A DNA stretch of 10,711 nucleotides from Escherichia coli (GTDB lineage: Bacteria; Pseudomonadota; Gammaproteobacteria; Enterobacterales; Enterobacteriaceae). Positions 7,852-8,547 of the stretch are shown one piece after another; positions within the stretch are counted from its first letter, which is position 1, and each line of letters opens with the position of its first letter. The stretch lies in the NCBI RefSeq assembly GCF_003334315.1, contig NZ_QOWR01000088.1. One strand, given 5' to 3'. A program made the position numbers and the translations under genes. The notes beneath the pieces were generated by a model. That model was not told where the DNA came from, searched no databases, and worked only from the letters and a program-made list of their open reading frames with translations.

Positions 7852-8547
7852 TCAACAATCCTCAATAATCAGATACACCGCTTTCACCGGGCCATGAACT
7901 CCGACGACTTTGATAAGCTCAATATCCGCCGTTGAACTGGGGCCGCTAATGATGTTAATGCAGGAAGGCATTCGTTCACCGGCCTGCGCTTTCTGATGCA
8001 ATTTTTCTGCGAGTTGCGCTACACGCGGCAGGATAGTGCTTTTACGCAGGATAAAAAGAGAATATTCCGGGAGCAGGCTCAATGAACGCCCGCGCTCGGC
8101 GGCGGAAAAAAGAACCACGCCTCCCGATTCGGTTAAACCATATTCAGCATACACAACACCCACTTTAGCCTGCTCTGCCTGCGAGATATTCTCGGCACCT
8201 TTCGCCGGATCCCAAACAACGGCATTGCATTCCTGCTGCAAACGTTCGCTAATCCCCAATTCCTCCAGCCTCGTGTCACCGCTAATCACGACCGACTGAT
8301 CTCCCAGCTCTTTACACAGACGTATTGCAGCTTCTGCCGCCTTCGCCTCGCTGGTCAGCTCACAGCGCGTCAACATAACATCGCTGGCAAACTGAATAAA
8401 CGCGTCACAGCGCTGCTGTTGGTTAAGTTGGGTAAGCCGCTCGTTAGCATAGTTGTTAAGCGGCGCATCTTCTGCTTGCGGTTCAAGTCGCAGCGGGCGA
8501 CCCAGTGCCTGAGCAACGTTATTCAAAAATTCGCCTCGATTATCCAT
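7852..8547 (-). CDS. ykgG: LutC-like protein YkgG (LUD/DUF162 domain), third gene of ykgEFG lactate-utilization-type operon
   Basis: 231-aa protein MDNRGEFLNNVAQALGRPLRLEPQ... matches remembered E. coli YkgG. Start ATG at 8547-8545 is preceded by AGGAGA and overlaps the ykgF stop by 8 nt (translational coupling). The 282-aa ORF in the track (to 8700) is an in-frame upstream extension running inside ykgF. Confidence 0.9.
   Translation of the reverse strand: MDNRGEFLNNVAQALGRPLRLEPQAEDAPLNNYANERLTQLNQQQRCDAFIQFASDVMLTRCELTSEAKAAEAAIRLCKELGDQSVVISGDTRLEELGISERLQQECNAVVWDPAKGAENISQAEQAKVGVVYAEYGLTESGGVVLFSAAERGRSLSLLPEYSLFILRKSTILPRVAQLAEKLHQKAQAGERMPSCINIISGPSSTADIELIKVVGVHGPVKAVYLIIEDC

Follow-up and report, generated by a model that had tools for sequence, protein, structure and literature searches.

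Where does translation of ykgG begin, how far does it depend on translation of the gene before it, and what remains of the ykgEFG operon when an IS1 element stands in its first gene? These questions are raised by a window of 10,711 nt (the whole stretch of DNA analysed here, from Escherichia coli contig NZ_QOWR01000088.1), in which ykgF and ykgG follow a truncated ykgE. In E. coli MP1 respiring nitrate, YkgEFG acts by genetic evidence as a respiratory L-lactate dehydrogenase (PMC9701030). The first-pass annotation of the window had proposed an 8-nt overlap between ykgF and ykgG, translational coupling of the three subunits and, as a consequence, a greater likelihood of polar effects of the IS1 truncation on the two distal genes. 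We consider it likely that the locus holds a normal lutB-lutC junction with ykgG starting at ATG 8547 and a plausible partial coupling to ykgF, within an operon that was decapitated by an IS1-associated deletion.

The identity of the genes is supported by profile searches. YkgF scored 778.7 bits against TIGR00273 (LutB/LldF; cutoff 444.8), and for YkgG, which has the RefSeq name "LutC/YkgG family protein" but matched no model of NCBIfam release 20 at E <= 0.001, the Pfam LUD domain (PF02589) was used instead and was found with E = 1e-29, the match beginning at residue 66 of 231. Full-length YkgE of K-12 contains two CCG domains (residues 3-84 and 133-216); the window keeps only codons 65-239, and thus lacks a LutA with both domains. 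The operon shares with lutABC of Bacillus subtilis and lldEFG of Shewanella oneidensis the TIGR00273 LutB, the LUD-domain LutC, the gene order and the tight junctions, but differs from them in being a damaged copy, whose lutA (ykgE) has lost codons 1-64; the upstream region that bears the promoter in K-12 is absent as well from the matching genomes. Further, the lutA-lutB-lutC synteny is kept in 78 loci, with lutC directly downstream of lutB. Additional copies were observed as well: a second, diverged LutB (~83% identity) is common in E. coli (P0068/P0072, 752 member sequences), a probable relative being the ykgEFG copy on plasmid pFec10, with a YkgE that shares 94% identity with its chromosomal counterpart (PMC7984374), and Proteus penneri has two lutABC loci (L017, L026).

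The features of the junction and its surroundings are collected in Table 1. The 8-nt overlap described in the first-pass annotation agrees in every coordinate with the sequence and with the K-12 annotation. Across the junction the minus strand reads cAGGAGaaaaagaATGGATAAtcg (8560-8538, cAGGAGaaaaagaATGGATAAtc); the 8 nt are common to both coding sequences, ykgG lies in frame +1 relative to ykgF, and the C-terminus of YkgF reads ...Q-E-K-K-N-G-stop. From 10507 down to 6305, the window corresponds to positions 321798-326000 of K-12 MG1655 with 1 mismatch in 4203 nt, and the K-12 genes (ykgE ending at 322327, ykgF at 322338-323765 and ykgG at 323758-324453) display the identical +10/-8 geometry; in RefSeq, ykgF and ykgG are annotated alike in the matching genomes. 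A 61-nt sequence spanning the junction was recovered in 4541 genomes, with 95-100% identity save for one matching record. The overlap had already been catalogued, since the supplement of PMC10666635 lists ykgF-ykgG at -8 and ykgE-ykgF at +10 within a ykgEFG transcript (K-12 transcription unit). Moreover, -8 is the third commonest overlap class, behind -4 and -1, both in E. coli and in 1,695 species (PMC10666635, PMC12548453), and the geometry is therefore unremarkable among prokaryotes. The overlap is an ordinary, already known lutB-lutC junction, with no departure from known biology.

Table 1. Coordinates of the ykgEFG features in the window (10,711 nt).
Feature	Coordinates	Strand	Remarks
ykgG (lutC family), LUD domain	7852..8547	-	231 aa; RefSeq WP_000370307.1
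ykgF stop/ykgG start overlap	8540..8547	-	ATGGATAA; ATG 8547-8545, TAA 8542-8540; -8 spacing
AGGAG Shine-Dalgarno of ykgG	8555..8559	-	within ykgF CDS; 7 nt 5' of ATG
ykgF (lutB/lldF), iron-sulfur subunit	8540..9967	-	475 aa; TIGR00273
ykgE stop and intercistronic gap	9968..9980	-	TGA 9980-9978; gap 9977-9968 = 10 nt (ggatataaag)
ykgE 3' remnant	9978..10507	-	K-12 nt 191-720; codons 65-239 and two bases of codon 64
IS1 left end (IRL and insA start)	10508..10711	+	opposite to ykgEFG transcription; runs past window end

The overlap depends on the choice of start codon, and the first-pass annotation had named initiation at an upstream in-frame Met as the finding that would overturn it. The mechanical ykgG reading frame spans 8700..7852 from a GTG and encodes 282 aa, compared with 231 aa from ATG 8547; a start at GTG 8700, ATG 8694 or ATG 8673 would enlarge the overlap to ~130-160 nt. 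Such a start is allowed by a frame that is open to 8700 and contains two in-frame ATGs, and the version number of the K-12 protein record (4) may point to earlier changes of the gene model. Several lines of evidence speak against it. First, when YkgG was compared by tblastn with 78 lutB-containing loci of other species, nearly all alignments began at query residue 1-4, which, like the LUD domain, fits the 231-aa form, and 47 of the 78 loci have no in-frame start at all upstream of the homologous lutC start. Second, the last 54 codons of ykgF were compared between the window and five Citrobacter species, and 14-18 of 17-22 substitutions fell at third positions of ykgF, with 3-5 amino-acid changes in the ykgF frame (54 codons) as opposed to 14-18 of 51 in the extended ykgG frame; one such comparison of E. 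coli with Citrobacter gave 17 of 19 substitutions at third positions, and 3/54 changes in ykgF against 17/51 in the extension. Thus, the extension evolves as ykgF read out of frame, and its product is an arginine-rich, low-complexity sequence (...GLRNIRRRRKR-MDNRGEF). Third, GTG 8700, ATG 8694 and ATG 8673 are not consistently conserved in Citrobacter or in a divergent Escherichia genome, and the candidates found at matching offsets in one Escherichia locus (L003) lack any Shine-Dalgarno match. Based on the substitution pattern and the homologue alignments, the 282-aa start was rejected, its probability being minute, and as far as these sequence comparisons go the 231-aa model stands.

The sequence around the start codon is itself constrained, which is a further argument for ATG 8547. 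AGGAG with equal spacing is shared by the loci of Escherichia and Citrobacter, between which this Shine-Dalgarno sequence shows reduced synonymous change. The final 14 codons of ykgF, in which the Shine-Dalgarno and start codon of ykgG are embedded, constitute the most nucleotide-conserved 14-codon segment of the gene in comparison with Citrobacter, equal conservation being reached in just 0.2-0.6% of such segments, a figure to be read with the mutual dependence of the Citrobacter species in mind.

For a broader view of this junction, we searched a single genome of each species with 12 aligned LutB proteins and obtained 79 loci, distributed over Enterobacterales, Pasteurellaceae, Vibrionaceae, Moritella, Marinomonas, Sutterella and Bacillales. 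The distance from lutB stop to lutC start, measured in 78 of them, was -20 in 1 locus, -8 in 10, -4 in 15, -1 in 19, +1 to +12 in 25, +13 to +29 in 7 and about +200 in 1; hence the genes overlap in 45 of the 78 loci and are spaced by at most 29 nt in 77. The gap of about 200 nt belongs to an uncultured bacterium (L032), and in another locus (L054) no lutC was found in the ~260 nt of sequence downstream of lutB. A Shine-Dalgarno match of at least 4 nt was present at 72 of the 78 junctions. The spacing varies with lineage, being mostly +11 in Vibrionaceae, +6 to +29 in Sutterella and mostly -4 or -1 in Bacillales, and -8 occurs in six genera (Escherichia, Citrobacter, Rahnella, Psittacicella, Marinomonas [M. 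spartinae] and Shouchella), several of which differ in the 8-mer; the junction sequence itself is not conserved beyond Escherichia and Citrobacter. In this survey, the conserved feature is a very short junction with a Shine-Dalgarno sequence within lutB, rather than the 8-nt overlap as such, and in its tightness, kept across distant taxa, the junction is non-random. A tight yet variable spacing is compatible with coupling by termination-reinitiation, without amounting to proof of it.

According to the proposed mechanism, a ribosome ending at the ykgF UAA would lie over the Shine-Dalgarno sequence and AUG of ykgG, where it may re-initiate with assistance of the former (termination-reinitiation); translation of ykgF would also hold the ykgG initiation site unfolded. 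Coupling of this kind would make the output of LutC follow that of LutB, as would suit subunits of one enzyme. The arrangement has the expected properties: the two genes are co-directional and on the same transcript, so close together that neither a terminator nor a promoter would fit between them, and AGGAG is placed at a functional spacing within the 3' end of ykgF. Both ykgF-ykgG and ykgE-ykgF fall within the spacing range of -8 to +10 that is treated as predictive of termination-reinitiation, in which E. coli pairs are 4.5-fold enriched for complex subunits (PMC10666635). With the -8 pairs described previously (NTGNNTGA/TAA; Huber et al., 2019, 2023; reviewed in Brown and Wade, 2025) ykgF-ykgG has in common the spacing, the Shine-Dalgarno inside the upstream gene, the location in one operon and the coding for subunits of one enzyme; however, the pairs tested experimentally in the Huber et al. 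studies have spacings of -4 to +1, in contrast to -8. Besides, the table of Huber et al. (2023) scores ykgF-ykgG as "not complex", whereas YkgEFG/LutABC is treated elsewhere as a heterotrimer. Our literature search found no paper with initiation or coupling data specific to ykgG. Of the native overlapping pairs of E. coli that were tested, 4 of 5 were coupled, usually in a manner dependent on the Shine-Dalgarno sequence (PMC6728339), and one systematic study observed less coupling when the overlap was extended past -4 (PMC12548453). Taken from the -8 geometry, termination-reinitiation at ykgF/ykgG is a reasonable and plausible proposal.

The strength of such coupling may be gauged from the predicted structure of the RNA. 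The 121-nt fold around the ykgF/ykgG junction is no more stable than its shuffles (z = +1.18; the lutA-lutB junction gave z = +0.76), and the region from -15 to +3 of the ykgG start has a predicted unpaired probability of 0.58. Among 77 homologous junctions the mean unpaired probability is 0.51, against 0.435 inside lutB (p = 4e-5), i.e., the junctions are predicted to be more open. A candidate hairpin sequestering the Shine-Dalgarno, in which the MFE structure pairs UUCCUG (8613-8608) with CAGGAG, was rejected, given its ensemble frequency of 0.004, a stability not above that of shuffles and an RBS accessibility above background. These predictions do not support the form of coupling that works through RNA unfolding. 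Furthermore, since the ykgG Shine-Dalgarno is strong and predicted to be accessible, a partial coupling on top of a competent de novo initiation is more probable than an obligatory one, and independent initiation from a strong, unsequestered RBS is plausible as well. A terminator-like hairpin with a T-rich tail within ykgF (8601-8585, minus strand, ~40 nt upstream of the ykgG start) was likewise discarded, as such elements occur there at chance level (4 against 3.5 expected in the region).

These same observations give some room to a reading in which the overlap is neutral compaction, ykgG being initiated de novo at its own Shine-Dalgarno independently of ykgF translation and -8 being a state reached by drift. 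AGGAG stands at an ideal spacing of 7 nt from a start region predicted to be unsequestered, homologous spacings drift from -20 to +29 and -8 recurs in six separate genera; in addition, bioBF is a precedent of an overlapping pair that is uncoupled (PMC6728339), and the abundance of short overlaps has been ascribed in part to the ease with which they evolve (PMC12548453). Even so, a ribosome terminating on the ykgF UAA would cover the Shine-Dalgarno and AUG of ykgG, which makes complete independence unlikely, and the near-universal short spacing, with overlap in more than half of the junctions, the coupling of most tested E. coli overlapping pairs (PMC6728339) and the enrichment of complex subunits among the -8 to +10 pairs (PMC10666635) argue in the same direction. 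Altogether, we regard fully independent initiation as unlikely, and partial coupling is preferred.

The A-rich tract AGGAG AAAAAG could also be taken for a programmed frameshift site, leading to a YkgF-YkgG fusion or to an alternative C-terminus of YkgF. The frameshift heptamer of dnaX is A AAA AAG, which G AAA AAG resembles, and the tract lies downstream of a Shine-Dalgarno-like sequence. Nevertheless, the heptamer is imperfect, with G at its first position, the spacing from the Shine-Dalgarno is unlike that of known stimulators, and conservation of the junction sequence ends with Escherichia and Citrobacter. In the -1 frame a stop is met after 8 codons, and ykgG is in the +1 frame, so that a -1 slip cannot yield the fusion; a dnaX-like slip at GAAAAAG was thus rejected on frame logic, and the chance that the tract is a programmed frameshift site is next to nil.

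At the preceding junction, the first-pass annotation had described a 10-nt gap between ykgE and ykgF with a Shine-Dalgarno sequence over the ykgE stop codon, and this description was correct, GAGG (9979-9976) overlapping the TGA upstream of the ykgF ATG at 9967. Spacing between lutA and lutB ranges from -10 to +49 among the homologous loci, with +10 and TGAGG in every locus of Escherichia and Citrobacter; the authors of PMC10666635 deemed independent initiation likely for pairs spaced by +9 to +12, a class to which ykgE-ykgF belongs. A stop codon within the Shine-Dalgarno (cgcTAAGGAG) is common at the lutA-lutB junction of other Enterobacterales and of Vibrionaceae (L010, L011, L013-L016, L043, L045 and others), and this TAAGGAG arrangement is better conserved than the TGAGG version of E. 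coli. An overlap of -10 was observed in P. penneri (L026) and Rahnella (L031).

The truncation of the first cistron by IS1, also proposed in the first-pass annotation, was borne out: nt 1-190 of ykgE are missing and IS1 sequence begins immediately beyond the remnant, which RefSeq annotates as a pseudogene "missing N-terminus". The first CCG domain (residues 3-84) has been lost for the most part, and the first in-frame start of the remnant is ATG 10376 (Met108), with a weak AAGG 11 nt upstream. The flanks of IS1 (...CCAGTGCGG and CTTTCATAC...) carry no 8-9 bp target-site duplication. In a genome identical to positions 3600-10711 of the window, only 18 nt separate the far side of this IS1 (region L001 6909-7694) from the stop codon of an eaeH-like invasin gene of full length, and the K-12 interval that contains ykgA, ykgQ, rclCBA, rclR and the 526-nt rclR-ykgE intergenic region is absent from these strains. 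The absent rclR/rclCBA genes belong to the reactive-chlorine response. The IS1 at ykgE is therefore an IS1-associated deletion and not a simple insertion: with no target duplication and with eaeH adjoining, codons 1-64 of ykgE are gone and its promoter presumably too.

A second IS1 was also found. Positions 1-453 (plus strand) are the right-hand 453 nt of a copy 99.3% identical to the one at ykgE and in the same orientation, which, by coordinate mapping (454-503), interrupts the small gene yahV between pdeL and betT. The two direct copies flank a 10,054-bp segment, betT-betIBA-ykgH-ykgGF-'ykgE (454-10507), an arrangement that resembles a composite transposon and offers a substrate for recombination between the two IS1. 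This copy is confined to some of the genomes with the ykgE junction (AHM9C68I and JX21CE33 do, 13C1065T does not).

The further proposal, that coupling makes polar effects of IS1 on ykgF and ykgG likelier, turned out to be weak, as any effect of coupling is small beside losing both transcription and an essential subunit. Since other sequence has taken the place of everything upstream of nt 191 of ykgE, the effect to be expected in the first place is loss of the promoter, and not polarity. The native transcription start would be lost, and ykgF and ykgG are most likely poorly transcribed and recently orphaned; the enzyme would be non-functional for want of an intact LutA, whatever becomes of the two genes. 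No sigma-70-like or consensus-like minus-strand site was found that could act as an outward promoter from the IS1 end into ykgE, the sole candidate recognized by eye (TTGGCA-N19-GATAAC) having a poor spacer. Transcripts of the co-directional eaeH-like gene may run on through IS1 into ykgEFG, and any such transcript would face Rho-dependent polarity on untranslated RNA, a principle described in PMC12360218 and PMC9239205; similarly to systems in which this polarity operates, IS1 is followed here by 131 nt with no in-frame start, which could expose Rho-loading sites. The locus has in common with the classical polar insertions in gal and lac an IS1 upstream of intact distal cistrons, but differs from them by the lack of a target duplication and by the replacement of the sequence 5' of ykgE nt 191. 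In general, IS1 insertions are polar whichever way they face. A literature search on IS1 polarity in both orientations returned nothing usable.

Two more ambitious interpretations were considered together. Either the -8 junction of Escherichia and Citrobacter is a selected tuning element that sets the LutC:LutB ratio via partial re-initiation, or the orphaned ykgF-ykgG pair is still expressed and has a YkgE-independent role. The final 42 nt of ykgF are frozen, synonymous sites included, and the junction could set a defined ratio of both subunits; expression of the orphaned pair may come from eaeH read-through or from a promoter at the IS1 junction. We judge it quite improbable that one or the other holds, and the preferred reading continues to be that of a normal junction in a decapitated operon.

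The analysis confirms the RefSeq and K-12 gene models of ykgF and ykgG, which is of little wider import, and the short lutB-lutC junction seen across phyla fits the co-production of subunits of one enzyme. For the strain, the practical point is the inactivation of ykgEFG: judging from the gene content, its L-lactate dehydrogenase activity is expected to be lost, and strains with this IS1-associated deletion, whose exact IS1/ykgE junction is present in at least 30 of 5426 complete E. coli genomes, would have to rely on LldD for L-lactate respiration.
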